59,657 nucleotides of DNA, filler included, from Pseudomonadota bacterium (GCA_043820105.1; 4 parts of 4 records of this genome joined end to end with filler, not necessarily neighbours in it); one strand, 5' to 3'. Counted from the whole stretch's first letter, positions 6,111 through 39,943 are shown. Translations and numbers: made by a program. The notes: generated by a model from the letters alone, not told the origin.

Positions 6111-6122
6111 TTTAACATAAAA
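6111..6122 (+). promoter_or_regulatory. Conserved upstream motif TTTAACATAAAA (-97..-86 of sRNA copy 1); candidate enhancer site
   Basis: Identical sequence and spacing upstream of all three sRNA copies. Confidence 0.7.
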
Positions 6123-6181
6123 AATCGAAATATCGCCACGTAACATTCTAATTTAATTACGTTAACCAAAAGCTGGCGAAA

Positions 6182-6197
6182 TGGCACCAAGTCTGCA
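6182..6197 (+). promoter_or_regulatory. Sigma54 (-24/-12) promoter TGGCACCAAGTCTGCA
   Basis: GG-N10-GC with TGGCAC; predicted +1 at 6208. Confidence 0.8.
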
Positions 6198-6207
6198 ATA
6201 GTATCTT

Positions 6208-6276
6208 AATAGTTTCATAATATGCTCCCCTAAAGAAAACTACAGGGTGTCATCGAGTTCGATGACACCCTTTTTT
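6208..6276 (+). ncRNA. Candidate sigma54-dependent small RNA, copy 1 (~69 nt)
   Basis: Promoter + 22-nt core GTTTCATAATATGCTCCCCTAA (6212-6233) shared with two other loci + terminator. Confidence 0.75.
6245..6276 (+). terminator. Rho-independent terminator GGGTGTCATCG-agtt-CGATGACACCC-T6
   Basis: Perfect 11-bp stem followed by T6. Confidence 0.9.
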
Positions 6277-6285
6277 AGTCCCAAA

Positions 6286-6353
6286 ATTAATTATTAATTA
6301 TTATTTGTTAATTATTGATTATTTTTTATTGATTATTGATTATTGATTATTGA
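6286..6353. repeat. ATTAATT/ATTGATT heptamer array
   Basis: 7-bp periodic AT-rich array related to those at 12293, 14909, 16247, 18728, 25388 and 54587. Confidence 0.8.
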
Positions 6354-6363
6354 AATTTAAGAC

Positions 6364-7869
6364 TTAATTAGCAACATTCACATAAACATAATTCGACTCA
6401 TAAGTAGCAAGCTCTCCAACTTTCCCAATCCCAAACAACTCATATTCACCATCTGCATAATAATTTGTCCTCCAGCCTATCAGTGTTTGAGGACAAGGAT
6501 CTTTTACTTCTATTATTTTTTCACCATCAGGCCCTTTAATATAAAAGTCCATTGAGGACAATGGAACTGTAATGTCTTGACAGGAAAATTCAATGTATAC
6601 TTTTTCTTTTAAGGTATCACCACTACTTGGAGAATTTATAGTGAGTCTTAAATCCTGTTTATTATTTAAGACATAAAAACGCTTAAATTCTGAATAATAA
6701 GAAAATTCCCCATCAGAAACAACGATTGTTGCATCATACATTCCATCAGGAACATTTAGTGTATCAATTTCAAAAATAAGCTCACTAGGATCTATATTAG
6801 CAGAAAAAACTTCACTATTAGTCTGGTGAACATATAGTTTAAAAATCGCACTTGTTATATTGGGATGTGTGTTTTCTGCAAATAAAGTAACTTTTCCAGC
6901 AAATGCATTTTCCTCAGATAATTGAGGCAGACTTACAAAGCCATTGAATTTTGGAACATCGAAGTTATAAGCAGATTTTCCAACCCCAGATGCATCATAC
7001 CAGTCAATTTTAAAATAACCCTGGTCACCCCAATCTTCACCCCAACTATTTCTAACTATCCAGGCTTTATTTTCATCTTCCCAGCCAACAATCACAATTG
7101 CGTGGCCTCCCAGCGCTTCACCTGTAACATGCTTATATACACCACTTTTATATGCTAAAAAATCTTCGTACACTGTCATTCCAGTTAATAGTGGTCCATG
7201 AGCAAGGGCTGCCTTAACTTTCTGCACATCATATGACCAGGAATTCACAGAGGTATAGTCTATAATTCCAAGAGTCCTATCATCCATATTATAGCAACTT
7301 AAAGCGCTGCACTCAAAATCCGCACCCATTTTTCCACTTTCATACGGAACACAAGCCTCATCACAAGTTCCTGTTCTTTTTAAATGAGAAGCACCTCCAG
7401 ATAAATACATGCCTTGATTACAAGCACCACCTCCACAGTGAAAAAGTTGCTGCTCAGAAAGATCAAAATCATAATCAGGATATAAATTGCTAATCCTCAG
7501 CTGGGCTTCAAATGCACCTAAAGTTGCAAAAGCAACACAGCTTCCACATCTTCCCTGATCACGAATTGGGCTCATCCAATTAGTACCATCAACATCTCTC
7601 CAATCAAACTCTGCAGATCTACTCAGATAATTTTCATATGGTGAAAAAGTATAAATCTCAAAAGCAAGCATAGATTCATCTTGGATTAAACCCATATGTG
7701 GTTTTTCGCCTGAATCTAAATATTTGCTCATAGAAGTTATGCCTGCTTGCCAATTGCCACCCTTGGCACTAATAGCTTCATTAATTTTGTCAGTGGACAA
7801 GTTAGTAGCAATTAAGTGAGTTGTTAGTAGAAAAGAAATGACCAGGAAAGACAGAGTGATTTTTTTCAT
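6364..7869 (-). CDS. Secreted papain-family (C1A) cysteine peptidase with C-terminal Ig-like extension
   Basis: Signal peptide, DWR, QGRCGSCVAFA, LSEQQL, GGHAIVIVGW, RNSWG. Confidence 0.93.
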   Translation of the reverse strand: MKKITLSFLVISFLLTTHLIATNLSTDKINEAISAKGGNWQAGITSMSKYLDSGEKPHMGLIQDESMLAFEIYTFSPYENYLSRSAEFDWRDVDGTNWMSPIRDQGRCGSCVAFATLGAFEAQLRISNLYPDYDFDLSEQQLFHCGGGACNQGMYLSGGASHLKRTGTCDEACVPYESGKMGADFECSALSCYNMDDRTLGIIDYTSVNSWSYDVQKVKAALAHGPLLTGMTVYEDFLAYKSGVYKHVTGEALGGHAIVIVGWEDENKAWIVRNSWGEDWGDQGYFKIDWYDASGVGKSAYNFDVPKFNGFVSLPQLSEENAFAGKVTLFAENTHPNITSAIFKLYVHQTNSEVFSANIDPSELIFEIDTLNVPDGMYDATIVVSDGEFSYYSEFKRFYVLNNKQDLRLTINSPSSGDTLKEKVYIEFSCQDITVPLSSMDFYIKGPDGEKIIEVKDPCPQTLIGWRTNYYADGEYELFGIGKVGELATYESNYVYVNVAN

Positions 7870-7885
7870 TTTTCCCCCTCGTTAA

Positions 7886-7998
7886 TAAGTGGTAAGTGAT
7901 AAGTGGTAAGTGGTAAGTGGTAAGAAAAATTGTATAAAACATATAGAAAAAACTATATGATCTAAAACTTACGACTTACGACTTACAACTTACGACTT
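7886..7998. repeat. Inverted pair of heptamer arrays: (TAAGTGG/A)x5.5 - 43 nt - (CTTACGA)x4.4
   Basis: 7886-7924 and 7968-7998; same layout as 5579-5668. Confidence 0.92.
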
Positions 7999-8084
7999 GT
8001 TTATGAGGGGGTTATATTTTTCGGTGAGGGGTAAATTGAGTAAATTTTATATAAAATTAATAAGAGAAAAGCAAAGGAAAAAGT

Positions 8085-9089
8085 TTATTCAATACAACTA
8101 GTAGTTATTTCACCACAATTAATATTATTCTTATTTGAATCCCAGCAGATTTCTGAATCGTCAGTTCTTAAAAACATTCCTTCACCAGACTCAATATCTT
8201 CATCAATTTCCCAATCAGTATCCTCGCTCGTATTATGAACACTCAATTCAAAACATGTTCCATCAGCATGTTTTCTATAATTTATATAGCTTCCATAATT
8301 ATCATTGTCCTCATCTATAACATCAAACCTCAAGTTTCTATCATTTTCATCTGTAATTGAAAAAGCAATGCTAATAAATTCTTCTCCTGTTTCAGGTGAA
8401 TATAAAGTACAAGTTCCTGTACCTCCCTGATCAACATTACCAAGATAATCAAAGGAATCTGCTGAAAGTTCATATTTAACAAAATCAGTACCTGATTGAA
8501 TTGCTGTTCCCACACATTCTGAACAGGTTATATTTAAGGTTAAAGTTGTATCTCCATCATCATCCTTTTCAGCGGTAAAAACAATGTCAGGATTATATGT
8601 TGTTCCATTGTGTGTTGTTGTCAGAGAAAAAGATAAAACAGCCTTTGTTACGTTTTCACTGGAATCAACTGTAAGTTCAAAATCAATATCTTCTGCATTT
8701 CCTGTAGCAAGTTGAGTTAATATTGCCTGAAAAACCAATCTATGAAGAATTGTTGTAGTAGTGGCGATAGCAGTTACAGTTAAATATGCCACTGCAGCCA
8801 AAGGTCGATTTGTTCGTAAATTCTTATAAAGACCACTCTCTGAAATTGATTGGTCAATCTCCATAGTTGAAATTCCTGGAATTGCAAAGGTTCCAATTGC
8901 TTCTTCAATGGAGGCAACTTCTGTAGTAACATCGTCACCAAGCCCATCTCCTGAAGTGGAGCCATCACCAGAGTCATCCCCAGCATCATCACAAGAACCT
9001 GCAGAATCGTCACCTGTTAAACAAGCTGGAAAAATTGAAAGTGAAATTATAATTAGGATAGCTAACGATATATTAAGTAAATTCTTCAT
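8085..9089 (-). CDS. Hypothetical acidic lipoprotein
   Basis: Lipobox-like FPAC after hydrophobic leader, Gly/Asp/Ser linker, SD GGAGGA. Confidence 0.75.
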   Translation of the reverse strand: MKNLLNISLAILIIISLSIFPACLTGDDSAGSCDDAGDDSGDGSTSGDGLGDDVTTEVASIEEAIGTFAIPGISTMEIDQSISESGLYKNLRTNRPLAAVAYLTVTAIATTTTILHRLVFQAILTQLATGNAEDIDFELTVDSSENVTKAVLSFSLTTTHNGTTYNPDIVFTAEKDDDGDTTLTLNITCSECVGTAIQSGTDFVKYELSADSFDYLGNVDQGGTGTCTLYSPETGEEFISIAFSITDENDRNLRFDVIDEDNDNYGSYINYRKHADGTCFELSVHNTSEDTDWEIDEDIESGEGMFLRTDDSEICWDSNKNNINCGEITTSCIE

Positions 9090-9102
9090 ATCTTCCTCCA
9101 GT

Positions 9103-9135
9103 TAAGTGGTAAGTGTTAAGTGGTAAGCTGTAAGT
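9103..9135 (-). repeat. CTTACCA-type heptamer array (4.7 units) ending 3 nt before the SD of the lipoprotein gene
   Basis: Plus strand TAAGTGG TAAGTGT TAAGTGG TAAGCTG TAAGT. Confidence 0.9.
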
Positions 9136-9230
9136 ATCAAAAACACAAATAATATGCAACAATTTTGTAAACCACTAAATTCAAAATCCCACCAGCAACC
9201 AGCAAGCACCCACTACTTCACCTAACTGAT

Positions 9231-9399
9231 CACCAGTGCACCAAAGCACCAGAAAGATAATGAAACCAAATACTAAATACAAATCTTACCACTTACCACT
9301 TACCACTTACCACTTACCACTTACCACTTATATCCTAGCACCAGTGCGCCAGAGCACCAGAAAGATAATGAAACCAAATACTGAATACAAATCTTACCA
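9231..9399 (+). repeat. 108-bp higher-order tandem repeat containing (CTTACCA)x6.5; second copy cut by contig end
   Basis: 9231-9291 vs 9339-9399 differ at 3 of 61 positions. Confidence 0.9.
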
Positions 9400-9499
9400 N
9401 NNNNNNNNNNNNNNNNNNNNNNNNNNNNNNNNNNNNNNNNNNNTTAATTAATTAANNNNNNNNNNNNNNNNNNNNNNNNNNNNNNNNNNNNNNNNNNNN
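9400..9499. other. Artificial assembly linker (N44-TTAATTAATTAA-N44)
   Basis: Ns plus six-frame stop spacer, identical three times. Confidence 0.98.
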
Positions 9500-10794
9500 A
9501 TAAGCATGAAAATAATAACCAAAATAGCTCCAATTAATAAAGCATTCTTTCCTTTCGTGATGGAGTCTTTTCCCAGACTTGGACCAACTGTTCTGTTTTC
9601 TTCAACAATAACAGGGGCTGGCAAAGAACCAGCTCGCAAAACAACTACTAAATCTGATGCTTCTTTAAACATATCTTCTGCATTCATTCCTGAACCTAAA
9701 GTAATTCTTGCTCTGCCTGAAGGAATCTTTTCGTTAATAATCGGTGCTGATGAAACATTGCCATCTAAGATAATTGCAAGTTGGTTTCCAACATTGGCTC
9801 CTGTAATTCTTCCAAAGATTTTAGCACCTTCTCTGTTGAATTCCATGGAAACAGCATATTGATTAAAACCAGTGTTATCCTGCATTACCCTTGCATCTTC
9901 AATAACTTCACCTGTTAATAGGGTTTTCTTTTGAATTAAATATGGTATTTTGGTAACTTCCCCAGTTGTTTTATCTCTTTCAATTTGATAGGCAATTTCG
10001 CAGCCTTCTGGGAGAGTTTCTTTCATAACATTATTTAAAGTTTTATTGTCATGTTCTTTTTCAAGCTTACCTTCTTTAATAGCTTTATCTATAGCTTTTT
10101 CTAAAGTAAGCCTATCCATTGTTTTATCAACGAGTTTAAATTCAAGTAGGGCTGTTCTTCTAATAATATTTAAAGCCCTGGCAGGATCTTTAACCCCTGG
10201 TAGTTGAACAAGTATTCTTTTATCGCCTTGAATTTGAATATTAGGTTCCGTAACGCCAAATTCATCAATTCTATTTCGAATTGTTTCAATTGCTTGATCA
10301 ATAGCTTGTTTCTTAATGCGATTTGCCCATTCTTCTTTAGGGGCAAGAACTATAAAATTATCACCTTTAGTTGAAGCCGTTTCATTATCAAAATCTAAAA
10401 TTTCAAAGTAATCATTTTTTATTTTGCTATAGCCTTTTTCCTGGGATTTGCCTGTAGCAAATTCTAAAATTATCTTCATCTCTATGCTATCAATATCAAC
10501 GTTCTTAACAAAAATGGAATCCTTTTTTAGATATTCCTTCATATTGTCGCCGATTCTGGTAATTTCATTCTCTAAGGCAACATTAACATCAACCCCCAAA
10601 ACAAGGTGAATTCCGCCTTGAAGATCTAGACCTAGTTTTATTAATTCTTTTGGAAAAAACGAACTTTCTGTATCTACAGTCGAAAAATCTGCTCCCATTT
10701 TATTCCAGTTTGTAATTGTTGGAATTAAATAGTAAACAGAAAATAATATGGCTATAATAACCAATGAGACCTTTGTCCACCACCACTTGGCCAT
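9500..10794 (-). CDS. secD: Protein translocase subunit SecD (3' truncated by gap)
   Basis: LGLDLQGG, RNRIDEFGVTEP, LRAGSLPAP, VGPSLG. Confidence 0.96.
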
Positions 10795-10815
10795 AACAAT
10801 CTCCTTTAATAAAAT

Positions 10816-11178
10816 TTATTTTTTATTGTTAGCATTTTGCTGTGCAGCCGGTTCAGAGCTTTCAATTTTACCAGAAGCTGCAACTGATGATTTTGATATC
10901 CTTATTCTAACATTATTTGCAATTTCTAAGGTAATGAATTCATCTGTAACGCCCGCTACTTTTCCGTATATTCCACCCGCTGTAATAACTTCATCTCCTC
11001 GTTTTAAAGCGCTAACAAAGTTTTGATGTGTTTTTTGCTTTTTTGTTTGAGGTCTTATTACAATAAAATAAAAAACTGCAATCATTAATATGATTGGTAA
11101 CAACATCTGTAACAATCCCGGGCTTTCTCCGCCAGCTTGACCATTTGATGCCATTGCATAAGCTACGTCTATAAACAT
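10816..11178 (-). CDS. yajC: Preprotein translocase subunit YajC
   Basis: FYFIVIRPQ, GDEVITAGGIYG; tgt-yajC-secD synteny. Confidence 0.96.
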   Translation of the reverse strand: MFIDVAYAMASNGQAGGESPGLLQMLLPIILMIAVFYFIVIRPQTKKQKTHQNFVSALKRGDEVITAGGIYGKVAGVTDEFITLEIANNVRIRISKSSVAASGKIESSEPAAQQNANNKK

Positions 11179-12278
11179 TTCTTAAATTCCTTATAAAAAT
11201 TATCAAAATTTTTAAACTCTATATTTTGCTGAATTTTTTTAATAAGTCCACTATAATAATGCAAATTATGCAAAGAATTTAAAATACATGCTGAAATTTC
11301 TTTTGCCATAAAAAGATGTCTTAAATATGATTTTGAGAAATTTTGACAGGTATAACAGGCACAATTTTCATCAAGCGGGCTATTGTCTTTTAAATATTTA
11401 TTATTTTTAATATTAACTGTGCCTTTTGAAGTAAACAAGGTGCCGTTTCTAGCGTTTCGCGTTGGCATTACACAGTCAAACATATCAATTCCAAATCGAA
11501 CACATTCAACTAGATCAAGAGGGGTACCAACTCCCATTAAATATCTTGGTTTATTTGTTGGCAATAGTTTTGCGGTAAGCTCTGCAATTCTATACATGTC
11601 TTCTTTTGCTTCTCCAACTGATAAGCCCCCAATTGAATAAGCATCAAAATCAAGCTCACATAAACCCTTAGCTGAAACTTTTCGAAATTCTTCTGAAACA
11701 CCACCTTGAACGATTCCAAATAAAGTTTGTCTTTCATCGCAAACCTTTTTAAACTCAATTTGTGATCTTTCGGCCCATCTCAAGCTAAGATTAGTAGAAT
11801 TTAATACATATTCATCTTCATTTGGCAGGCTTACACATTCATCAAGCTGCATCATAAAATCAGAACCCAGGTCCTTTTGGATATTCACAACCTTTTCAGG
11901 TGTAAAAAAATGCCTTGAACCATCAATATGAGAGGCAAATTCTACCCCATTTTCTGAAAGTTTTTTTAAAGCAGCCAAAGAATGAACCTGAAAACCACCA
12001 GAATCAGTTGCAATATGACCATTCCAGCCTACAAATTTATGCAACCCTCCTTGAGATTTTATTACATCAGAACCCGGTCTTAAGTATAAATGATAAGTAT
12101 TACTGATAAAAATATTAAACCCAGCTCCTGTAAGATCTCTAGGCAAAATCGCCTTAACAGACCCAGCTGTCGAAACAGGCATAAAAAGGGGCGTTTTAAC
12201 TTTACCACGAGAAGTTTCAATTGTGCCTGTCCTGGCTTTGGAATGAGGATCTTTTGCATCAATCGTAAAATTCAGCAT
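11169..12278 (-). CDS. tgt: Queuine tRNA-ribosyltransferase
   Basis: NTYHLYLRPG, TDSGGFQV, DMFDCVMPTR, CACYTC zinc motif. Confidence 0.97.
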   Translation of the reverse strand: MLNFTIDAKDPHSKARTGTIETSRGKVKTPLFMPVSTAGSVKAILPRDLTGAGFNIFISNTYHLYLRPGSDVIKSQGGLHKFVGWNGHIATDSGGFQVHSLAALKKLSENGVEFASHIDGSRHFFTPEKVVNIQKDLGSDFMMQLDECVSLPNEDEYVLNSTNLSLRWAERSQIEFKKVCDERQTLFGIVQGGVSEEFRKVSAKGLCELDFDAYSIGGLSVGEAKEDMYRIAELTAKLLPTNKPRYLMGVGTPLDLVECVRFGIDMFDCVMPTRNARNGTLFTSKGTVNIKNNKYLKDNSPLDENCACYTCQNFSKSYLRHLFMAKEISACILNSLHNLHYYSGLIKKIQQNIEFKNFDNFYKEFKKCL

Positions 12279-12292
12279 ATTTTTGTATTCAC

Positions 12293-12331
12293 ATTAATTA
12301 TTATTTATTAATTATTGATTATTATTTATTT
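12293..12331. repeat. ATTAATT/ATTGATT array just upstream of tgt start
   Basis: Direct reading. Confidence 0.75.
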
Positions 12332-12398
12332 CAAAAAACCGTTACCTATCTATAATCATTTGAAATATCAAGGAAAAAGTTGATTGCAAAGTGTTATG

Positions 12399-12434
12399 GA
12401 GAACAAGAGCGCAGGAGAACAAGGGAACAAGGGA
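12399..12434 (+). repeat. Octamer array GAGAACAA GAGCGCAG GAGAACAA GGGAACAA downstream of queA
   Basis: 8-bp periodicity; inverted relative to 13536-13583. Confidence 0.88.
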
Positions 12435-12459
12435 GATCAAGAAGTCGTTTCAGGTTGTA

Positions 12460-13536
12460 TTATAGGATTAGCATACAATCCCCATAAGAAAAAAGCCGAT
12501 ATTTTTCACGAATTGCTTCTTCATAAGCATTTTGCATGAGCTTTTGAGATGCAAATGCTGAGACCATGATAAAAAGGGAGGATTTGGGTTGGTGAAAGTT
12601 TGTTAAAAGACCACCTACTGCCTTAAATTCATATCCTGGATAAATGTACATTTCTGTCTTATTCCAAGAATCTAGTTTTGCTTCTTTATTAGTAAAAAAG
12701 CTTTCAATAGTTCTAACTGATGTGGTACCTATTGCTATTATTTTATTTCTATTTTCTTTGGCAATTTTGATAGCATCATATGTGGGTGTTGAAATAAAAT
12801 ATTCCTCATAATGCATTTTGTGTTCTAATATATTTTCACTTCTAACTGGCAAAAATGTTCCAATACCAACATTTAATGTAACAGGATGCATTTTAATGTT
12901 TTTTTCTTTTAATATATTAAGAATATTTTCAGTGAAATGCAGGCCAGCAGTTGGAGCAGCGCAAGCAAGACCTTTTTGAGCATAGACAGTTTGATATCTT
13001 GAGCCATCAAGATCTTTATCATAATCGCGTTTCAAATATGGTGGGATTGGCATTTGACCAAAATAATCTATCCAATTTAAATGATATTCTATAAAATCTT
13101 TATTTATTGAGTTTTCATAAGTGGAATTGCTGTGATCAAAATATATTTGATAGGACATATTTACTTTTTCTTTTATTACAATCACTGTTGTATTATCTTC
13201 AAGTATTAAGTTTTCATCTTTTCGTAAACTTCTTGAAGAATTTACCATTGCCTCCCAAAGCCTATCATTTTGATTTATTTGCTTTAATAAAAGGATTTCA
13301 ACTTTTCCACCTGTTTGTCTTTTTGCAAAAAAACGAACCTTTTCAACCCTCACATCATTATAAACAATTATATCATTTTCATTAATATAGTTTGGAAATT
13401 GTTTAAACGTATTGTGTGAAAAAGACTGGTTTTCTCTATCAACAATAAGCATTTTAGAATCATCACGGTTTTTATTAGGATATTTAGCGATAAGCTCTTC
13501 TGGAAACATATAATTATAATTTTTAATATTATTCAT
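12460..13536 (-). CDS. queA: S-adenosylmethionine:tRNA ribosyltransferase-isomerase
   Basis: PIPPY, YQTVYA, AAPTAGLHF, GTTSVR, TNFHQP, YRLFSYGD. Confidence 0.97.
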   Translation of the reverse strand: MNNIKNYNYMFPEELIAKYPNKNRDDSKMLIVDRENQSFSHNTFKQFPNYINENDIIVYNDVRVEKVRFFAKRQTGGKVEILLLKQINQNDRLWEAMVNSSRSLRKDENLILEDNTTVIVIKEKVNMSYQIYFDHSNSTYENSINKDFIEYHLNWIDYFGQMPIPPYLKRDYDKDLDGSRYQTVYAQKGLACAAPTAGLHFTENILNILKEKNIKMHPVTLNVGIGTFLPVRSENILEHKMHYEEYFISTPTYDAIKIAKENRNKIIAIGTTSVRTIESFFTNKEAKLDSWNKTEMYIYPGYEFKAVGGLLTNFHQPKSSLFIMVSAFASQKLMQNAYEEAIREKYRLFSYGDCMLIL

Positions 13537-18809: not shown

Positions 18810-21227
<2,418 letters not shown>

Positions 21228-23600: not shown

Positions 23601-23674
23601 CAAGTAGTAAGCTGTAAGTGATAAGTTATAAGTAAAAAACTTAAAACCTAATACATAAAGCTTAAAACTTTAAA
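23601..23674. repeat. Degenerate inverted heptamer pair upstream of dnaN: (TAAGNNN)x5 then (CTTAAAA-like)x5
   Basis: 23601-23635 and 23640-23674; first array ends 4 nt from SD AGGAG. Confidence 0.75.
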
Positions 23675-23726: not shown

Positions 23727-23826
23727 NNNNNNNNNNNNNNNNNNNNNNNNNNNNNNNNNNNNNNNNNNNNTTAATTAATTAANNNNNNNNNNNNNNNNNN
23801 NNNNNNNNNNNNNNNNNNNNNNNNNN
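23727..23826. other. Artificial assembly linker
   Basis: N44-TTAATTAATTAA-N44. Confidence 0.98.
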
Positions 23827-28846: not shown

Positions 28847-29344
28847 TTATTGTGATGCATTTCTATAATCATCAATGACCTTTTTAACACTGTTTGAATC
28901 AAGCTTGCCAAAAACCTTGTTATTGACCATAACAGCTGGTGCAAGTGCACAGCAACCAAGGCAGGCAACATCTTGAATAGTAAAAAGACCATCTTCAGTT
29001 GTATCTTTTGTTTCATCTAATTTCAAATATGACTTTAAACTTTCACCTAAAACTTTTGCTCCAGCAACGTGGCATGCAGTTCCCATGCAAACTTTAACAA
29101 GGTTTTTGCCAACTGGTGTGGTTCTAAATTGTGAGTAAAAAGTTAAAACACCAAAGATATGACTTTCAGAAAGGTTTAGCTTTTCTGAAAGATAACCTAC
29201 TGCGTATTCTGGAACATAACCAAATTTAACTTGAACTTGTTGTAAAAAAATCATCAAAGAATTTTTATCTTTGAATTTATCATATAGCTCATCAAGAATT
29301 GCAAAGTCTTGAGTGTTTGCAGCTGTGGTTGATTCTGTTTGCAT
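28847..29344 (-). CDS. NuoE/HydC-like [2Fe-2S] subunit (start at MQTES)
   Basis: TFYSQF, CMGTAC, CLGCC; SD AGGAG before ATG at 29344. Confidence 0.92.
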   Translation of the reverse strand: MQTESTTAANTQDFAILDELYDKFKDKNSLMIFLQQVQVKFGYVPEYAVGYLSEKLNLSESHIFGVLTFYSQFRTTPVGKNLVKVCMGTACHVAGAKVLGESLKSYLKLDETKDTTEDGLFTIQDVACLGCCALAPAVMVNNKVFGKLDSNSVKKVIDDYRNASQ

Positions 29345-29345
29345 C

Positions 29346-31340
29346 TTAGTTTTTCTCCTTGGCAAGTTTGTGTGCAGCCTTTGCAAGGCCTGTGCAATTT
29401 TCAGAAAAAATATTTTTATAATCAGGGCAATCAATGTAGTCAGGAATTGAAAATTTATTATCAAAAGCAATTTCAAATGCCTCAGTGCTTTTTAAATTTC
29501 CAGCTTTAATCATGCTTGAAGAAAGGTTTTTGAAGTGTGAAAACTTTTCAGTAATTTCTTTATCCCATAATTCTTCTGCTGAATTATAATTAAAGCTTGC
29601 ATTAAATTTAGCGGCTAAGGTTTTAAAAACACAAAAGGGTGATTTTGCTTCAAAAGTAGGCTCTATTGATTTAGATGTCTTGTTTACATGGTAATCATTG
29701 CTTATGTAAGTTCCATCTGTTTCAATCCAAACTGCAGATGGCAGTATTAGGTCCGCGTTTTGATTACTATCATTTAGGAAAATATCTTGAACAACAAGAA
29801 ATTGGCCATCTTTCTTTTCTTTTAATGAAGCGCTCATTGTATAAATGAATTTCATTTTAGAAAAATCTAAAGCTTTTGGTTCAATTCCTAATAAATATAG
29901 GCCTAAAGAGTTATTATTTGAGCTTAAACCAAAACACTTAATATTATTTATTTCCTTAACTTTGGAAATATCATCTCCTGCTTTATAAAATAAATAAGTT
30001 GCACCTTTTGCATGTTCTGCTAGTGACTCAGCGTCTTTTAAGTTAATGCTTGCATATTTTGAAAGCTCATTCTTGTTCTTATCAACAACAATAAGATTAA
30101 CCTTATTTTTTATAATTGCTTGCTTAATATAAGAGGCAGCAACTGGATTTTCTTTTGTTATATTGTAATTATATATTACTATTGTATCTAGATTTTTTAA
30201 ATCAGCATAATTTTTATTAAAAGCGCCAAAAGCTTCAAAATGAGTAATGTTTTGAGTTTTGATTACTTCTGTAAAGAATTTATTCGCGCTAAATAAATCT
30301 TCACATGAATACTTAGGAGATAAAATGGCTGCTGTCGAATCCTTGCCAGCTTCTTTTAGTTTAGAGCTAATTAAATCAAAAGCCTCATCCCAGGAAGCCA
30401 CAACAAAGTCGCCATCTTTTTTAATTAATGGAGTTTTAACTCTTTTATCAGAATTAACAAAACTGAAGCCAAAGCGGCCATTGATACAAAGCCTTCCATT
30501 ATTTGGATTTAAGTTTTCATTGCCATTTACTTTTACAACCTTGCCATCAATAATTTTTAAATCTAGTTGGCAGCCTGTGCCACAATAGTAACAAGTGGCT
30601 TTTGCCCATTCCCCGCTCCACATTCTTGAATCAAATCTTTCTTGTTTTTCAAAGAGGGCGCCAACTGGACAAACTTGTATACATTCTCCACAATAGACAC
30701 AGTCTGAGGTTGGTAAAGTCTTGTCACCTTTTACAACTATTTTTGATATGTTTCCTCGATAGCCATAAGAGATAGCGTTATTAACTTGAATATCATTACA
30801 AGCTTGAACACATCTTCCACAAAGAATACATCTTGAATGGTCTCTACCAATAAGATCATCATCAAGTTCAATTTGATATTTAGGTTTCATACCATCTAGT
30901 CTGCGATAGTTAACTTGATATTTATAGGCTAAAGCCTGGAGATCGCATGTTCCATATGCAACACAAATATCATTGGCTTTATCATATTCACAAGTCTTTT
31001 CCTGAAACTCTGTCCAATCATTTTCTTTAAGACCTCTGATAGAACAGTTATGATTGCCTGAAATAAGCAGTAATTCAATTACCAGCTTTCTGCATTTTCT
31101 AATTTCAGGGGTTTCAGTTTTAATATCCATATTTTTTTCAGCGGGTGTAGAACAAGCTGTCAGAAGAGCTCTGCCGCCTTTTGCTTCAACAAGACAAATT
31201 CTGCAAGCTCCTGTTGGATGAGCACCCTTTAGGTGACAAAGAGTTGGAATCCAAACATTATTTCTCCTTGCTACATCCAGAATGGTTTCGCCTGGAGTGA
31301 AGGTATAAACATGTCCATTTAATTTAATAGTATTTTCCAT
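29346..31340 (-). CDS. NuoG/FdhA-like poly-Fe-S subunit with shortened molybdopterin-fold domain
   Basis: IPTLCH, GACRIC, CILCGRC, CVYCGEC, CYYCGTGC...LC; abbreviated C-terminal half. Confidence 0.85.
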   Translation of the reverse strand: MENTIKLNGHVYTFTPGETILDVARRNNVWIPTLCHLKGAHPTGACRICLVEAKGGRALLTACSTPAEKNMDIKTETPEIRKCRKLVIELLLISGNHNCSIRGLKENDWTEFQEKTCEYDKANDICVAYGTCDLQALAYKYQVNYRRLDGMKPKYQIELDDDLIGRDHSRCILCGRCVQACNDIQVNNAISYGYRGNISKIVVKGDKTLPTSDCVYCGECIQVCPVGALFEKQERFDSRMWSGEWAKATCYYCGTGCQLDLKIIDGKVVKVNGNENLNPNNGRLCINGRFGFSFVNSDKRVKTPLIKKDGDFVVASWDEAFDLISSKLKEAGKDSTAAILSPKYSCEDLFSANKFFTEVIKTQNITHFEAFGAFNKNYADLKNLDTIVIYNYNITKENPVAASYIKQAIIKNKVNLIVVDKNKNELSKYASINLKDAESLAEHAKGATYLFYKAGDDISKVKEINNIKCFGLSSNNNSLGLYLLGIEPKALDFSKMKFIYTMSASLKEKKDGQFLVVQDIFLNDSNQNADLILPSAVWIETDGTYISNDYHVNKTSKSIEPTFEAKSPFCVFKTLAAKFNASFNYNSAEELWDKEITEKFSHFKNLSSSMIKAGNLKSTEAFEIAFDNKFSIPDYIDCPDYKNIFSENCTGLAKAAHKLAKEKN

Positions 31341-31349
31341 ATTATTTTT

Positions 31350-33370: not shown

Positions 33371-33967
33371 TTACATTGTCAAAGTTTTAAGAGAGGCATC
33401 AATTCCCATAAAGCCAAAGAAGGCCAAGGCCATTAAACCAGCCATTACAAGCGCTATTGCAGTGTCTTGGAGCGCTCTTGGAATATATGCGATTTCAAAT
33501 CTTTCACGAATTCCAGCGAATAATATTAAGGCCAGAGCGAATCCTGATCCTGATGCAACAGCGTAAACCAGGCTATCAACAGAATTCATGCCATCTTTAA
33601 CACAAATTAAAGCAACGCCTAATACAGCGCAGTTTGTTGTGATAAGTGGCAAAAATATGCCAAGGGCTTGATATAAAGGAGGAATGGCTTTTTTCAAAAA
33701 CATTTCCACCAATTGAACCAAAGCTGCTATAACCAGGATGAAAACAATGGTTTGTAGGTATTCTAGTTTAAAAGCTACCAAAAAATAATTATGTACAACC
33801 CAGGTTATTATTGTAGCAAAGGTCATTACAAAAATAACAGCTATTCCCATGCCAAAGGCTGTTGATGTTTTTTTAGAAACACCTAAGAATGGACAGTTGC
33901 CAAGATATTGGGCCAGTAAGATATTTTTAACCAGCATAGCATTTATTATAATTACAAGATATTCCAT
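33371..33967 (-). CDS. rnfA: Rnf complex subunit A
   Basis: LGNCPFLGVS, LPLITTNCAVLG. Confidence 0.95.
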   Translation of the reverse strand: MEYLVIIINAMLVKNILLAQYLGNCPFLGVSKKTSTAFGMGIAVIFVMTFATIITWVVHNYFLVAFKLEYLQTIVFILVIAALVQLVEMFLKKAIPPLYQALGIFLPLITTNCAVLGVALICVKDGMNSVDSLVYAVASGSGFALALILFAGIRERFEIAYIPRALQDTAIALVMAGLMALAFFGFMGIDASLKTLTM

Positions 33968-33986
33968 AAAAATTCCTTAAATTCTT

Positions 33987-34580
33987 TTATTTTTTTGTTA
34001 TAAGATTCATTAAAGCTAGTAGTAAGCCAAGACATACAAAGGCTCCTGGAGCTTCAACCATAAAATTAAATGGTTTAAAGGATGCACCAAATACTGACAT
34101 TCCCAAGAAAGTGCCATATCCAAATACTTCTCTTAATCCACCTAATACAAATAATGAGATTGTAAATCCCAGGCCAATTCCTAGACCATCAGCAGCTGAT
34201 TTGATAACAGTGTTTTTTGAGGCAAAAGCTTCTGCTCTTCCTAGAATAATGCAGTTAACAACTATAAGTGGAATAAATATGCCTAGTTTTGTAAAGAGTG
34301 TATAGAAATAGGCTTGCATTAATAATTCAACCATAACAACAAAGGAAGCGATAACCACAACGTAGCTAGCGATTCTAACTTTTTTAGGTATGATCGATTT
34401 AATTGACGAAATAATAACATTGGAACATAGTAAAACAAAAGTTGTAGCAAGGCCCATTCCAATTCCATTTTCAGCGTATTTTGTAACAGCAAGAGTTGGA
34501 CACAGACCAAGCACAAGTCTAAAAGGCGGGAGCACCTCCCAGAAACCTTTAAAAAATTCATGTGTAATAGATTTGCTCAT
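33987..34580 (-). CDS. rnfE: Rnf complex subunit E
   Basis: LGLCPTLAVT, PLIVVNCIILGRAEAFA. Confidence 0.95.
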   Translation of the reverse strand: MSKSITHEFFKGFWEVLPPFRLVLGLCPTLAVTKYAENGIGMGLATTFVLLCSNVIISSIKSIIPKKVRIASYVVVIASFVVMVELLMQAYFYTLFTKLGIFIPLIVVNCIILGRAEAFASKNTVIKSAADGLGIGLGFTISLFVLGGLREVFGYGTFLGMSVFGASFKPFNFMVEAPGAFVCLGLLLALMNLITKK

Positions 34581-34621
34581 AAAAAGTATATCCTGTCAAA
34601 TTAAGTTAATTATTTATTTGT

Positions 34622-35185
34622 TTAAAGTTTTTCTTTTAATTCTTTATAAATTGGTATTGCTTTTTCAACTGCATTACAAACCGCTTTTGATGAAATTGTC
34701 GCACCAGTGATAGCATCAATAACACCACCATCTGCTTTGACCTTAAAGGTGTCATCAATAGATTTATCTTTGAATGCATTTGAAAATGTTGGTTCTCCTA
34801 TTTTAGATCCAACTCCTGGTGTTTCTTTATGTGTTGTGATTCCAATGCCTGTGAGGGTGTCATCTTCCAGGTTAAAACCAACTACAACTCCAACATCTCC
34901 ACCAAATCCTCCTGCAAATGTTTCAAAAGCTACAGCCCAGGGAGCATTTGATTTATTACCTGTAAATACCTGGAGTTTTCCAGAATCTACATCATATTCT
35001 TTTCTATCTTTGATCAGTTCATTTTCGGAGCCAGATAATACTGTTTCAACAGCTGGGCCTTTAACATTAATAAGAACCTGTTCTTGGATTCGTTCTTTGG
35101 TTCCTTTATGAATAAAGGCTAGTACAAAGCTGCATACTGCACAAATCAATGACAGTACCATTATCATTTTTATTGATTCTTTCAT
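34622..35185 (-). CDS. rnfG: Rnf complex subunit G
   Basis: GFGG, HKETPGVG, FMN site DAITGATISS. Confidence 0.95.
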   Translation of the reverse strand: MKESIKMIMVLSLICAVCSFVLAFIHKGTKERIQEQVLINVKGPAVETVLSGSENELIKDRKEYDVDSGKLQVFTGNKSNAPWAVAFETFAGGFGGDVGVVVGFNLEDDTLTGIGITTHKETPGVGSKIGEPTFSNAFKDKSIDDTFKVKADGGVIDAITGATISSKAVCNAVEKAIPIYKELKEKL

Positions 35186-36156
35186 AATACCTTATTTCTT
35201 TCTAAATAATTCACATTAATTTTCTTTATTTTAGGAGCAATTTTATCAAGTAAAGGGGTGAATAATGACATAATCATAATTGCAAAAACTACACCATCTG
35301 GGTAAGAAGACCATGCTCTTAAGATGACTGTAAGCATTCCGCAACCAAGACCAAAAATAATCAGTCCCCATTTCGAATATGGACTTGATCCATAGTCTGT
35401 TGATAAAAAGAAAAGCCCAATAAGTAAGTTTCCAGTTAAAATATGAAATAAACCATTGGCATATAATGAAGGATTCATAACATTATATATGGTGGCCATT
35501 ATGAGTGTTCCAATTAGGAAAAATAATGAAATTTCCCAGGATATAATTTTTCTAATAATTAGATAAGCTCCACCAATTAGTAATAAAAGACCATTTGTGC
35601 TTCCTAAACCACCAGCTTGTTTACCCATGAAAAGATCCATCATTGTATATGTAGCAATAGAATCAGTTCCTGATGATTTAACAAGTGCTAATGGGTATTG
35701 CCAGTCATAAGCTAGATCATAAGGCGCAAGCACAAAGTTGAGATTAAAATATTCTGGCCAGGAAATTCTTAAAATGGCCCATCCAACAAGTACAGGAGCT
35801 ATTGGATTGCTTCCTAGACCGCCAAAAACTTCTTTTCCAGTGAATATGCATAAGAAAGCTCCAAAAATAACAATCCAGTAAGGCATACTAGCTGGTAAGA
35901 TTAATGCAAATAATAAACCAGTTAACAAGGCAAAGCCATTATCTGTTTCAAAATCTTTTTTAAATAGCTTTCTGATAAGAACTTCTGAAAGCATGGCAGA
36001 AGCGCATGATAAGGCTATGACTCTAACAGCATGCATTCCAAAAGAATAAATAGCAAAAGCTACAACTGGTAATAGGGCAATGATAATGTTATAGTAGATC
36101 TTTTTTATTGAACTACCATCATGCCAATGTGGCGAAGAACTAACAATTAATTTCAT
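35182..36156 (-). CDS. rnfD: Rnf complex subunit D
   Basis: SSPH, KEVFGGLGSNP, TDYGSSP, YPDGVVFAI. Confidence 0.93.
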   Translation of the reverse strand: MKLIVSSSPHWHDGSSIKKIYYNIIIALLPVVAFAIYSFGMHAVRVIALSCASAMLSEVLIRKLFKKDFETDNGFALLTGLLFALILPASMPYWIVIFGAFLCIFTGKEVFGGLGSNPIAPVLVGWAILRISWPEYFNLNFVLAPYDLAYDWQYPLALVKSSGTDSIATYTMMDLFMGKQAGGLGSTNGLLLLIGGAYLIIRKIISWEISLFFLIGTLIMATIYNVMNPSLYANGLFHILTGNLLIGLFFLSTDYGSSPYSKWGLIIFGLGCGMLTVILRAWSSYPDGVVFAIMIMSLFTPLLDKIAPKIKKINVNYLERNKVL

Positions 36157-36176
36157 TGTAAATAACTCTTTCTTAT

Positions 36177-37364
36177 TTAAATTTCAGTATTTGTATTTAA
36201 TGCAATCTGCCTTTTTGCATGCTGCATAAGTTGTAGCAAAGATCTTTTGGCAGGGCATTTATATGAGCAATATGCACATTCAATGCAATCATTAACTCCA
36301 AGTTCATCACAGGTTTCAAAATTTGAAAATTCAGCAAAACGACCAATTAGATTTACATGTAAGTTAACTGGGCAGGCATTAACACATTTCCCACAGTTAA
36401 TGCATTGATTAGACTCATATTTATAAACATCTTTTGCATCTTGAACGTAAATCATATCAATATCACTATTAACTGGATAATTAAGGTCATAACAAGTATG
36501 TCCTTTCATTGGTCCGCCTAGAATAACTTTATCATTATCTTTTAGTTCTGTATTCTCTAAAAGTTTTGAAATTGGAGTTCCGATTCTAACTTTAAGGTTT
36601 TTCTTTTCATTTTTTGTTATTAGGCTTATAACCTTATATATATATGGCTGTCCTTTAATAACAGAATTATAAGCAGCAAGCACTTTTTCAAAAGTAATAA
36701 AAGCATGACTGCTTCTAGAGGCCGCATCTGAAAAAGAAGAAATAATCATTGCTGGATCAGCTTTTAGATATAATCCATCAAGCCCGATTACTTTTGCATT
36801 AGTTAAAACTTTTTGCTTTGTTTTATCCTCTAGAACCTTAGGTACTATTAAAACAATTTCATTAGCTTGATATAGTTTTTTAATAAAAGTAAGGGCTTCA
36901 GTTAACTTATCTTGGGATTCAGTAAAAATTTGTGAGTTTACTGAGCAAAGCGGTTCTAAGTCAATAGCATAAATGAAGATTGTATTAATATTAGATTCTG
37001 TTGAGAAATTAAAACCACTTTTATTGATTATTGAAAGAAGTTCATCTCTCGTTTTTGATGAAATGTTTTCATGTTCCTTAAAAGAGCTATGTACTTTATC
37101 TTCTGAATTAACATGAACTTTTAGAACACTAAGCTCACCAGTAATACCAGTCATTTTTTCTACTGATTTAATTTCACCTGTAACAGTTGAAATAAAACCA
37201 GGGAAAAGTTCTTCACCTGTCTCTAAACTTTGTAAAGCTTTGAATTTTGTGCACGCCTCGTCATAGGAACAAGTTCCAAGCAGTAAATTTACTTCATCGC
37301 ATTCTGGTAATTCTGTGATTTTTAAATCTTTGAAATTGAGGTTTAAGTTTTTTTGAATTTTCAT
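36177..37364 (-). CDS. rnfC: Divergent RnfC-like subunit
   Basis: GTPI, GGPMKG, CINCGKCVNACP, CIECAYCSYKCP; position before rnfD. Confidence 0.8.
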   Translation of the reverse strand: MKIQKNLNLNFKDLKITELPECDEVNLLLGTCSYDEACTKFKALQSLETGEELFPGFISTVTGEIKSVEKMTGITGELSVLKVHVNSEDKVHSSFKEHENISSKTRDELLSIINKSGFNFSTESNINTIFIYAIDLEPLCSVNSQIFTESQDKLTEALTFIKKLYQANEIVLIVPKVLEDKTKQKVLTNAKVIGLDGLYLKADPAMIISSFSDAASRSSHAFITFEKVLAAYNSVIKGQPYIYKVISLITKNEKKNLKVRIGTPISKLLENTELKDNDKVILGGPMKGHTCYDLNYPVNSDIDMIYVQDAKDVYKYESNQCINCGKCVNACPVNLHVNLIGRFAEFSNFETCDELGVNDCIECAYCSYKCPAKRSLLQLMQHAKRQIALNTNTEI

Positions 37365-37377
37365 TTTCTATCCATTG

Positions 37378-37758
37378 TTATTTGTGACAAAATTTACAGC
37401 CTTGTTCTTCGGCTGCATCTGCGTGGCAGTCATAGCAATTTTTACCTACGCATCGGGTGTGAATGGGATCGTCTGCACAGACGCTTTCAAGTTTTTTATC
37501 ATAATGACATTTTCTACAATTTGATTCCTGTTTTTCCTTTGTATCTGGATCATAATTATGGTGGCATTCAGAACATTCAACTGCTGCAGCATCTTCTGAT
37601 GAATGCATTTTATGATCAAATACAACTGGACCGCCTTTGGAGTTCATTAAAACTCTAATTGGGTCTTGCTTTTTTTCAGCCAGATAGCCGAATATTCCAA
37701 TAAAACCAAGAGCTAAGATTATGATAAAAACTATGATTTTTGAATTACATTTTTTCAT
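37378..37758 (-). CDS. Membrane-anchored tetraheme cytochrome c3-like protein (start probably MKKCNS)
   Basis: N-terminal TM, GGPVVFDHKMH, four CxxCH motifs (CSECH, CRKCH, CYDCH, CKFCH). Confidence 0.9.
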   Translation of the reverse strand: MKKCNSKIIVFIIILALGFIGIFGYLAEKKQDPIRVLMNSKGGPVVFDHKMHSSEDAAAVECSECHHNYDPDTKEKQESNCRKCHYDKKLESVCADDPIHTRCVGKNCYDCHADAAEEQGCKFCHK

Positions 37759-37934
37759 TTTCTTCTGATACACCTTTTTTTGAATTTGAATTCGAGCCTC
37801 AAATAAAACTAAAAATTAAAGATTGCAAGAAAAAATTTATGATCTTTAAAATAAAATTTCCTTTAAATTATCAATAACTAAAGGTGTTTGCAAGTGGATG
37901 AAAATAAAGGTTAAATTAAAATTAGGATGTTCAG

Positions 37935-38774
37935 CTAAATTTGAATTTCCATGCCCTGGAAAACAGCATAACAATTTAAATTAGATTTTTTGTCTTTTAT
38001 TATTTGTTTACAATCATTTTCAATTTCCTGAACCTGAGCATCGTTGCGATTTTGGTTGTGATGAAAGAGGCCGAAGTTTTTAACATTAGCTTTTATAGCA
38101 AGGTTTAAACTATCTGTGTAGACTGTATGCCCCCATGTTTTTGTGTAAGAATACTCTTCTTTATTATATTCAGAATCATGAAATAAGACATCAGCATTTC
38201 TGCAAAATTTGGTGTATTCTTCAAATGACAATCCAGTAGGGTGAGTATATGTTAATTCATTATCAGTTAAAAATACGAAAGATTTGCCATCTTCAGTGAA
38301 TTTAAAACCAGTTCCCCCATTTGGATGACTTAAGTTTATTGGTGTTATTTCAATGGGACCAATGTTAAAAATATTACAGCATGCAGATTTAAATTTAACA
38401 GCAGCCCTTATGTCGTCAAACTTAATTGGAAAGGTTGGAGGAGACATTGTTTTTGATATTATCTTTCTAATTGAATCTTGTGAAGTTACACATCCATAAA
38501 TGCACAAAGTTGCTTTTTCGTTATAAATAGGCTTAAAAAATGGAAAACCAAGGACATGATCTAAATGAGCGTGAGTAAAAAGAATGCTTATAGCCTTTAA
38601 GTCATCGCCAGAAATAAGATTTCCAAGAGGACGAATACCTGACCCTGCATCAATAATAATTAGGTCATTGTTTTTGCTTCTAATTTCAATGCAAGTAGTG
38701 TCCCCACCATATTTTAAAAACTCTTTGCCTGAAACCGGAATTGAGCCACGGCAACCCCAAACCTTTATTTTCAT
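37935..38774 (-). CDS. MBL-fold metallo-hydrolase
   Basis: WGCRGSIP, DAGSG, THAHLDH, WGH. Confidence 0.92.
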   Translation of the reverse strand: MKIKVWGCRGSIPVSGKEFLKYGGDTTCIEIRSKNNDLIIIDAGSGIRPLGNLISGDDLKAISILFTHAHLDHVLGFPFFKPIYNEKATLCIYGCVTSQDSIRKIISKTMSPPTFPIKFDDIRAAVKFKSACCNIFNIGPIEITPINLSHPNGGTGFKFTEDGKSFVFLTDNELTYTHPTGLSFEEYTKFCRNADVLFHDSEYNKEEYSYTKTWGHTVYTDSLNLAIKANVKNFGLFHHNQNRNDAQVQEIENDCKQIIKDKKSNLNCYAVFQGMEIQI

Positions 38775-38795
38775 TTTATATACCTTTATTTTAAA

Positions 38796-39230
38796 TTATT
38801 CTTTGTCATAATTTTCAAATAACTCAAGGTTTTCTTTTACATAGGGAAATAGTTTTTGATCTTCTTTATGAGCGTGATCCAAAATTTCATCTTGGATATC
38901 CATAAAAAGAAGTATAAGCCTAGCAGAGGAATCTGGAGATTTTGTCTCAGCATTATTTTCAACAATTTTCCAAAAGCTGGTAATTCTTTCAGTTATTATG
39001 CCATGGTCTTTTTGTAGACTTAAAACATATTTTACTAACTTTAAATCAGTAGTATGTGCTAAAACTCTTGAAAAGATATGGTCTTCTTCAAATTGAAAAT
39101 GAAGCATTAGATTTCGATCAAACATTGCTTCAATTTCTGATAAGTGATTCCATATCTCTTGCTTATCTTTAATATTTGGTAATTTATCTAAGTTACTAAA
39201 CCATTCAGAAACATCTTGATGATCTTCAAT
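38796..39230 (-). CDS. Hemerythrin-like (HHE) domain protein, 5' truncated by gap
   Basis: Frame open to the contig edge; EDH, HFQFEE, KDH, HAHKED motifs. Confidence 0.8.
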   Translation of the reverse strand: MEDHQDVSEWFSNLDKLPNIKDKQEIWNHLSEIEAMFDRNLMLHFQFEEDHIFSRVLAHTTDLKLVKYVLSLQKDHGIITERITSFWKIVENNAETKSPDSSARLILLFMDIQDEILDHAHKEDQKLFPYVKENLELFENYDKE

Positions 39231-39330
39231 NNNNNNNNNNNNNNNNNNNNNNNNNNNNNNNNNNNNNNNNNNNNTTAATTAATTAANNNNNNNNNNNNNN
39301 NNNNNNNNNNNNNNNNNNNNNNNNNNNNNN
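39231..39330. other. Artificial assembly linker
   Basis: N44-TTAATTAATTAA-N44. Confidence 0.98.
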
Positions 39331-39419
39331 TTTCATTATTTTTAACATATTAATGTAAGGAGTTTTAATTTATGAGTTGCAATTTTTATAAAAATTTTAG
39401 ATAAAAATTTTTGGGCTAG

Positions 39420-39470
39420 GTGGACCACTTTTGCGTCCGATTCGTGGACCAGTTTTCAATCCGATTGGCA
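39420..39470. mobile_element. Probable IS21-family terminus (two 23-bp tandem binding repeats ending ...GGCA)
   Basis: GTGGACCACTTTTGCGTCCGATT and GTGGACCAGTTTTCAATCCGATT at 24-bp period, terminal CA, near contig start; no transposase visible. Confidence 0.6.
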
Positions 39471-39471
39471 T

Positions 39472-39503
39472 AAAAAAAAGGAGACCGAATATTTTCGGCC
39501 TCC
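39472..39503 (-). terminator. Rho-independent terminator GGAGGCCGAA-aata-TTCGGTCTCC-T8
   Basis: 10-bp stem with a G-U pair only on the minus strand, T8 tail. Confidence 0.88.
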
Positions 39504-39533
39504 TTAATTAGGGGAGCATATTATGAAACTATT
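39472..39533 (-). ncRNA. Candidate sigma54-dependent small RNA, copy 2 (~62 nt)
   Basis: Same 22-nt core (39508-39529), own promoter and terminator. Confidence 0.75.
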
Positions 39534-39543
39534 AATATACTAT

Positions 39544-39559
39544 TGCATATGTGGTGCCA
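39544..39559 (-). promoter_or_regulatory. Sigma54 promoter TGGCACCACATATGCA
   Basis: GG-N10-GC; predicted +1 at 39533. Confidence 0.8.
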
Positions 39560-39618
39560 TTTCAGCAGATATCGTTTTGTTAAATATTATCTTGCGCTTA
39601 GAGCGGTTGGATTGTTTT

Positions 39619-39630
39619 TTTTATGTTAAA
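39619..39630 (-). promoter_or_regulatory. TTTAACATAAAA motif at -97..-86 of copy 2
   Basis: Identical sequence and spacing. Confidence 0.7.
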
Positions 39631-39778
39631 ATGGATGAATTTAGTGCAAAAAGTAAATTTTTTACAAGAAAAATATGTAAAATAATTGGGATATTCCGAT
39701 GTCTCCTAAAATCAAAAGCACTTTTTATGTTAAATTAGATAAAAGTGTAAAAAGTGTAAAATTTAAATAAAAGGCAAT

Positions 39779-39813
39779 AAAAAATGGGAAGCCCCACACA
39801 AGGGAGCTTCCCA
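39779..39813 (-). terminator. Rho-independent terminator TGGGAAGCTCC-N7-GGGGCTTCCCA-T6
   Basis: 11-bp stem with a U-G pair only on the minus strand, T6 tail. Confidence 0.88.
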
Positions 39814-39846
39814 AACCAAATTTAGGGGAGCATATTATGAAACATT
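39779..39846 (-). ncRNA. Candidate sigma54-dependent small RNA, copy 3 (~68 nt)
   Basis: Same 22-nt core (39822-39843), own promoter and terminator. Confidence 0.75.
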
Positions 39847-39856
39847 AAGATATAGA

Positions 39857-39872
39857 AGCAAACTCTGTGCCA
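39857..39872 (-). promoter_or_regulatory. Sigma54 promoter TGGCACAGAGTTTGCT
   Basis: Matches TGGCAC-N5-TTGC; predicted +1 at 39846. Confidence 0.88.
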
Positions 39873-39931
39873 AAAAGACAGGGCGATTTTTTGTCTTTTA
39901 TTACATGAAACTATAAAGATATTACATTAAA

Positions 39932-39943
39932 TTTTATGTTAAA
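39932..39943 (-). promoter_or_regulatory. TTTAACATAAAA motif at -97..-86 of copy 3
   Basis: Identical sequence and spacing. Confidence 0.7.

Follow-up and report, generated by a model that had tools for sequence, protein, structure and literature searches.

Three predicted sigma-54-dependent small RNA genes with an identical core antisense to a translation-initiation region in an uncultured groundwater bacterium

Anatomy of the three loci

The 59,657-nt stretch of DNA analysed here (the window; GCA_043820105.1) contains three intergenic loci built on a single plan, each with a 12-nt upstream block, a sigma-54-type promoter, an identical 22-nt core and a hairpin followed by a T run, and each predicted to encode a small RNA (sRNA) of about 64–70 nt (Table 1). 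Copy 1 is flanked by a divergent DUF1820 gene on one side and a convergent papain-like protease gene on the other. Copy 3 comes after a xanthine-dehydrogenase-type operon and is followed by copy 2, the two lying in tandem on one strand, 314 nt apart.

All three promoters have GG at -24 and GC at -12 with 10 nt between these dinucleotides. Compared with the consensus TGGCAC-N5-TTGCW, copy 3 has no mismatch and copies 1 and 2 have one each. The pattern TGGCAC-N6-TGC occurs at three sites in the 59.7-kb window (6182 on the plus strand, 39559 and 39872 on the minus strand; 0.25 expected), all at the sRNA loci, which bears out the GG-N10-GC promoters proposed in the first-pass annotation. An ungapped alignment places the 12-nt block TTTAACATAAAA upstream of each promoter, its start being exactly 71 nt from TGGCAC. 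It has four exact occurrences in the window, all at these loci; the fourth may possibly serve as a second activator site for copy 2.

Conservation, scored as the positions invariant across the ungapped three-copy alignment (about 9% expected from base composition), is confined to short blocks: 12 of 12 positions in the upstream block, 6 of 6 in TGGCAC, 3 of 3 in TGC and 22 of 22 in the core are invariant, as against 9 of 59 in the spacer between the upstream block and TGGCAC, 1 of 6 in the promoter N6 and 4 of 50 in the nucleotides after the core. Judged by this alignment, the paralogs are saturated with change outside the four blocks. Since conservation falls only on the blocks that such a unit needs, the pattern fits an enhancer-dependent sigma-54 transcription unit whose RNA has a functional 5' segment. 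The positions that are free in a sigma-54 promoter are also free here, and the spacing of the upstream block is exact to the base; a fixed distance of 71 nt despite a diverged spacer is what would be expected of an activator site held on one face of the helix.

The 22-mer GTTTCATAATATGCTCCCCTAA was found in exactly three copies, as annotated at first pass, with no further site in the window at up to three mismatches (0 expected from 100 shuffles), and every copy lies 29–30 nt after a TGGCAC-N6-TGC site. Its reverse complement reads GGGGAG, a Shine-Dalgarno (SD) sequence, followed by a 6-nt spacer, ATG and AAA, so that the description of the core as antisense to an SD sequence, a spacer and ATG AAA also held. 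The RNA strand of the core contains, in all three copies, the in-frame mini-open reading frame (mini-ORF) AUG CUC CCC UAA.

Downstream of the core, each locus has a G+C-rich hairpin of 11–12 pairs followed by a run of 6–8 U in the predicted RNA. Folding supported the earlier view that these are intrinsic terminators of unrelated sequence in all three copies. Compared with shuffled controls, the whole predicted RNAs gave folding z-scores of -4.8, -4.4 and -2.3, and their first 22 nt or so are unpaired or weakly paired in the predicted fold. The first-pass annotation had also used G-U pairs in two of the stems as an argument for the strand. This stands for copy 2, in which the stem is worth -18.6 kcal/mol on the proposed strand and -15.4 kcal/mol on the opposite strand (a difference of 3.2 kcal/mol), but it is weak for copy 3 (-20.7 and -20.0 kcal/mol, a difference of 0.7 kcal/mol) and does not apply to copy 1. 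The better strand marker is the U tail, which is present only on the promoter strand in all three copies.

Table 1. Features of the three predicted sRNA loci, in window coordinates
Feature	Position	Strand	Remarks
Copy 1 upstream block TTTAACATAAAA	6111–6122	+	candidate binding site of the activator (enhancer); 71 nt upstream of TGGCAC
Copy 1 sigma-54-type promoter TGGCACcaagtCTGCA	6182–6197	+	-24 GG, -12 GC
Copy 1 predicted sRNA, ~70 nt	6208–6277	+	start 6208 inferred from promoter spacing
Copy 1 sRNA parts		+	core 6212–6233; terminator stem 6244–6271; U tail
Copy 3 upstream block TTTAACATAAAA	39932–39943	-	71 nt before TGGCAC
Copy 3 sigma-54-type promoter TGGCACagagtTTGCT	39857–39872	-	perfect consensus match
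Copy 3 predicted sRNA, ~68 nt	39779–39846	-	core 39843–39822; terminator stem 39813–39785; U tail
Extra TTTAACATAAAA block	39723–39734	-	104 nt upstream of the block of copy 2
Copy 2 upstream block TTTAACATAAAA	39619–39630	-	71 nt before TGGCAC
Copy 2 sigma-54-type promoter TGGCACcacatATGCA	39544–39559	-	
Copy 2 predicted sRNA, ~64 nt	39470–39533	-	core 39529–39508; terminator stem 39505–39478; U tail

Proposed function and alternative explanations

The feature is real and probably functional. We consider the loci to be three paralogous, enhancer-dependent sigma-54 sRNA genes with a common seed directed against translation-initiation regions, and put the probability of this at about 0.6. From the anatomy and the conservation pattern observed, we infer transcription, dependence on sigma-54 and an activator, pairing and repression as follows: i) RNA polymerase with sigma-54 would transcribe each gene from its TGGCAC-N5-xTGC promoter, which would be activated by an enhancer-binding ATPase bound some 100 bp upstream, the invariant TTTAACATAAAA block being its probable site; ii) the intrinsic terminator would end transcription to give a trans-acting RNA of some 64–70 nt; iii) the unpaired 5' end of this RNA would expose 22 nt antisense to an SD site (GGGGAG), a 6-nt spacer, AUG and AAA, and would pair with the initiation region of at least one mRNA encoded elsewhere in the genome, an ideal target start region being one close to TTAGGGGAGCATATTATGAAAC; iv) pairing would block the ribosome and thereby lower the translation or stability of the target mRNA; and v) the three copies would give redundant or additive output under one signal. 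Given the reverse complement of the core and the strong SD sites used by genes of the window, base-pairing sRNAs that occlude initiation regions seem the most economical reading.

Several observations weigh against it. The whole case consists of three paralogs in one assembly, in which gene conversion could inflate the invariance, and the mini-ORF inside the core might have a role of its own. A scan of the whole window for pairing with the seed gave a best non-self site of -21.2 kcal/mol, inside the range of the best sites of 10 shuffled seeds (-17.6 to -22.1 kcal/mol). Among 60 gene starts, the best duplexes were those with secD (-14.5 kcal/mol) and brnQ (-14.3 kcal/mol), and the start of the divergent DUF1820 gene next to copy 1 offers two short pairing blocks worth only -11 kcal/mol. 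No Sigma54_activat domain was detected among the 40 window ORFs scanned, with four ORFs of at least 100 aa and no larger overlapping ORF (28847–29476, 33371–33967, 33987–34580 and 34622–35185) lying outside the scan. The exact 22-mer had no match in metagenome contigs and none in viral contigs, and a core 19-mer matched species-representative genome contigs at five loci, each of which is an ordinary gene start (SD and ATG AAA) on the opposite strand that lacks a sigma-54 promoter; none is a homologue. The isolation of the lineage (see below) explains both the lack of exact matches to the core and the nature of the 19-mer matches and, with no relatives available for orthologue comparison, the case rests on the paralogs. 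Of the redundant set of trans-acting, translation-repressing sRNAs claimed in the first-pass annotation, what stood is the anatomy of three sigma-54-type non-coding units with an anti-ribosome-binding-site 5' region, whereas no target above background was found in the window.

If the RNAs are made as proposed, they need not block ribosome-binding sites: the 5' region could be a protein-binding or sponge segment, or the mini-ORF could be translated, for instance in a leader sensed by the ribosome. The presence of AUG-CUC-CCC-UAA in frame inside all three cores, the lack of a window target above background and the absence of any 22-nt target at up to three mismatches in the four genomes of an analogous family (loci L007–L010, see below) are in keeping with this, but no SD sequence precedes the mini-ORF, its invariance extends to the wobble positions, as part of a 22/22 match that fits pairing better than coding, and no gene that a leader could control lies downstream of copy 1. 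We regard this explanation as unlikely. It is very unlikely that the loci are instead cis-acting units, in which a sigma-54 promoter, a leader and a conditional terminator serve downstream genes, or antisense units to convergent or neighbouring transcripts. The tandem arrangement of copies 3 and 2 would suit such a role, as would the end of copy 2 near a piece boundary (see below), beyond which its true downstream gene could lie, and the hairpin of copy 1 is symmetric and could also terminate the convergent papain-like protease gene. However, the gene context argues against a leader or attenuator role for at least copies 1 and 3, since no co-oriented gene follows them: the next gene after copy 1 is convergent, leaving nothing to lead into, and copy 3 is followed by the enhancer and promoter of copy 2. 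The terminators also look strong, with their long U runs, and no alternative anti-terminator fold was seen in them.

Conservation at the DNA level without an RNA product, either as a protein-binding module or as decayed promoter copies kept alike by gene conversion, appears quite unlikely. There are only three copies from a single assembly, and the extra TTTAACATAAAA block has no promoter of its own, both of which such a repeat would accommodate; yet the blocks obey the rules of sigma-54 promoters, keeping GG and GC and leaving the N positions free, and the terminators, which differ from copy to copy, all look functional and lie on the promoter strand. Conservation in separate blocks was also the reason for rejecting a mobile element, a continuous repeat or a conversion tract, each of which should be conserved without interruption. 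Highly improbable, finally, is that the conserved element is a ribosome-binding site with ATG AAA on the opposite strand, driving small proteins (type I toxins, for instance) to which the sigma-54 RNA would be the antisense partner. Read in reverse complement, the core does form a textbook SD-spacer-ATG, and the opposite-strand ORFs of copies 1 and 2 begin alike (MKLL-YYC--GAIS). Against this, the ORFs from the opposite-strand ATG are 18, 71 and 3 codons long in copies 1, 2 and 3, that of copy 3 stopping after MKH; the residues common to copies 1 and 2 mirror the conserved promoter, and the differences between these two copies fall at the free positions of the promoter and are non-synonymous. 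The ORF lengths had been noted at first pass as a sign that coding is not what is conserved, a conclusion which these differences reinforce. Small-protein genes on the opposite strand were accordingly rejected, and a conserved small hydrophobic ORF opposite an antisense RNA, as in type I toxin-antitoxin systems, was not found at the three loci.

Genomic context and lineage

Three gaps in the window (9400–9499, 23727–23826 and 39231–39330) each consist of 44 N, TTAATTAATTAA and another 44 N, which looks like an artificial six-frame-stop linker. The stretch is four pieces joined by linkers, and gene neighbourhoods across the linkers are therefore not real adjacency. The last piece spans 39331–59657, and its 20,327 nt equal the length recorded for the contig behind the only database copy of its DUF6178 protein. 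Copy 1 consequently sits on a different piece from copies 2 and 3, and the hemerythrin, cytochrome c3 and Rnf genes are only seemingly downstream of copy 2, the end of which is 141 nt from the piece boundary. Repeats are frequent break points of assemblies and, with copy 2 so close to a boundary, more copies may exist. No RNA run was listed among the sequencing runs that contain window sequence, and two groundwater DNA runs contain small shares of it. Short contigs from these two runs match the window exactly (e.g. 39590–39771 and 39728–39902, with 0 differences) and may come from the source sample itself. In the DNA-run contigs, the segment 39403–39470, downstream of copy 2, joins several different flanks, and it is also found inside longer contigs with 2 differences; this suggests a dispersed repeat beside the piece boundary.

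The window has a G+C content of about 31%. Its genes include dnaN, recF, gyrB and gyrA, several for peptidases, and an Rnf cluster to which a class III cytochrome c belongs. Of 8000 candidates scored from a collection of 5.8 billion proteins, none but GyrB (18810–21227) itself exceeds 61% identity to it, and the GyrB proteins of five comparison genomes are 49–59% identical to it. For the DUF6178 protein (45400–46995), no relative besides itself was found in the database at E ≤ 1e-20, and an Atlas look-up gave no reliable family for a neighbouring 334-aa protein. By these protein comparisons, the lineage of this deeply branching, uncultured groundwater bacterium is very isolated.

The gene rpoN is absent from the window. 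Sigma-54 sites with at most one mismatch number nine in the window, five of them intergenic. These five are the promoters of the three sRNA loci and two further near-consensus sites (TGGCAT-N5-TTGCA), both oriented toward a gene: TGGCATgtttaTTGCA at 52398–52413 (+) lies about 95 nt ahead of a gene for a sugar transferase, and TGGCATcaaatTTGCA at 54560–54575 (-) about 30 nt ahead of a 177-aa ORF. The lack of a TTTAACATAAAA block at either site suggests that other activators may act there. Such intergenic near-consensus sites would provide indirect support for the use of sigma-54 by the organism.

The window also contains tandem heptads, CTTA(C/T)CA, with 36 matches to a two-unit pattern compared with 3.5 expected. 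Arrays are located at 378–409 (+), 5579–5610 (-), 7886–7924 (-), 9103–9127 (-), 9285–9330 (+) and 23615–23632 (-), and the heptads stand in the sense orientation just before the SD sequences of C25, M29 and C1 peptidase genes, the gene for the 334-aa protein and dnaN. In two of these leaders the heptads are preceded by a second array, (AAGTCGT)n, to which they are almost complementary (5630–5668 and 7968–7992). The arrays could be a structure in the 5' untranslated region or a protein-binding array; the heptads do not pair with the sRNA seed.

Recurrence of the design and comparison with known systems

The pattern TGGCAC-N6-TGC-N15–19-TTCAT-N5–7-CTCC was searched in 401 genomes sampled from one phylum, that of one of the comparison genomes. 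It matched 7 genomes, and the reversed control none; four of the seven matches form one family (loci L007–L010), two others are real gene starts and one was left unclassified. Members of the family, present as a single copy per genome, have TGGCAC-N6-TGC followed after about 14 nt by the invariant TAATTCTTCATCTCTTCTCTCC, antisense to GGAGAG-spacer-ATG-AAG, and then by a terminator, the stem of which is kept through one double change and through G-U changes that pair only in the RNA sense. Their opposite-strand ORFs are 14, 45, 26 and 3 codons long, no match was found in Rfam 15, the family shares the upstream motif GTTCAGTTAATTAAA, and the two loci examined for context (L007 and L009) lie upstream of a DUF362 gene. 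Both the core and the upstream motif differ from those of the window RNAs and, since the search pattern forced the shared letters, the likeness is no proof of homology; what it shows is that the design recurs, which counts in favour of the sRNA reading of the window loci. In two other phyla, none of 120 and none of 301 genomes matched the pattern. A looser search for the L007–L010 core matched 144 of the 401 genomes, but the reversed control also matched, and none of the 30 loci examined lay behind a sigma-54 promoter.

A broader reading, which we consider doubtful, would take both sets as examples of a recurrent, uncatalogued class of bare-5'-end RNAs under sigma-54 and enhancer control that arose independently in sigma-54-rich anaerobes, namely in the isolated groundwater lineage described here and in the family from 4 of 401 genomes of another phylum. 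The 5' end of such RNAs would mimic the 3' end of 16S rRNA and add an anticodon-like CAU. Rather than narrow single-target regulators, they would be either broad dampers of SD-led initiation or silencers of near-perfect antisense complementarity that originated when the start region of a target was copied in inverted orientation.

If the proposed sRNA genes are confirmed, they would be the first regulatory RNA family for this bacterium, would offer a handle on its regulon through a single enhancer motif, a single type of sigma-54 promoter and a single seed, and would add one more lineage that routes sigma-54 signalling through multicopy sRNAs. Their block-wise conservation would make them a good test case for the discovery of sRNAs from paralogs alone, without relatives. 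Even so, the general understanding of sRNAs or of sigma-54 would not be changed.

The first-pass annotation had not recognised the RNAs as a known family, and a covariance scan of the whole window with Rfam 15 agreed, giving no family at the gathering score. At E ≤ 10, the regions around both loci gave sub-threshold noise only, with no match to Qrr. A hit to csRNA (RF02379) for copy 2 alone, at 24.6 bits (E 0.72), is far below the gathering score of 57 bits, and membership of copy 2 in that family was rejected. As regards novelty, the sequence family is new, whereas the kind of RNA is already described in the form of Qrr, Pxr, the csRNAs and the sigma-54-dependent RNAs of Desulfovibrio.

The multicopy RNAs Qrr1–5 have the same core sequence throughout, base-pair with ribosome-binding regions and carry an intrinsic terminator at their end; they are longer RNAs with several stem-loops, and the LuxO sites differ from the upstream block found here. 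The window RNAs, with a bare 5' seed and a single hairpin, are unlike Qrr in this respect and show no sequence or structure match to it. The likeness to the LuxO-dependent Qrr1–5 of Vibrio lies in the sigma-54 promoter and in the short sRNA: Qrr RNAs are described as short sRNAs whose sigma-54 promoters depend on activation by an enhancer-binding protein (PMC10162802). Pxr is also expressed from a sigma-54 promoter, and its tandem paralogs in Cystobacter, each with its own sigma-54 promoter (PMC5568312), resemble copies 3 and 2. However, Pxr has a fold of two or three stem-loops and adjoins nla19, its response-regulator gene, whereas the window copies have no adjacent activator gene and their fold is a single terminator hairpin. 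In Desulfovibrio vulgaris, the sigma-54 regulome includes four non-coding RNAs (ncRNAs) under enhancer-binding response regulators (PMC4641369, PMC3333781). The genes for these ncRNAs (e.g. Dv_sRNA2, downstream of DVU0679) directly follow the genes of their regulators, unlike the window copies.

The closest match in seed logic is provided by the streptococcal csRNAs, several highly similar paralogs per genome that have been proposed to block translation initiation through a conserved unpaired region complementary to the SD site and AUG (PMC3091779). They differ from the window RNAs in being controlled by the two-component regulator CiaR from ordinary rather than sigma-54 promoters, and in carrying the seed between two stem-loops. 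On the comparisons made here, the three predicted genes are outside the Qrr, Pxr and csRNA families, and the finding brings together two known themes in a sequence family that is new.

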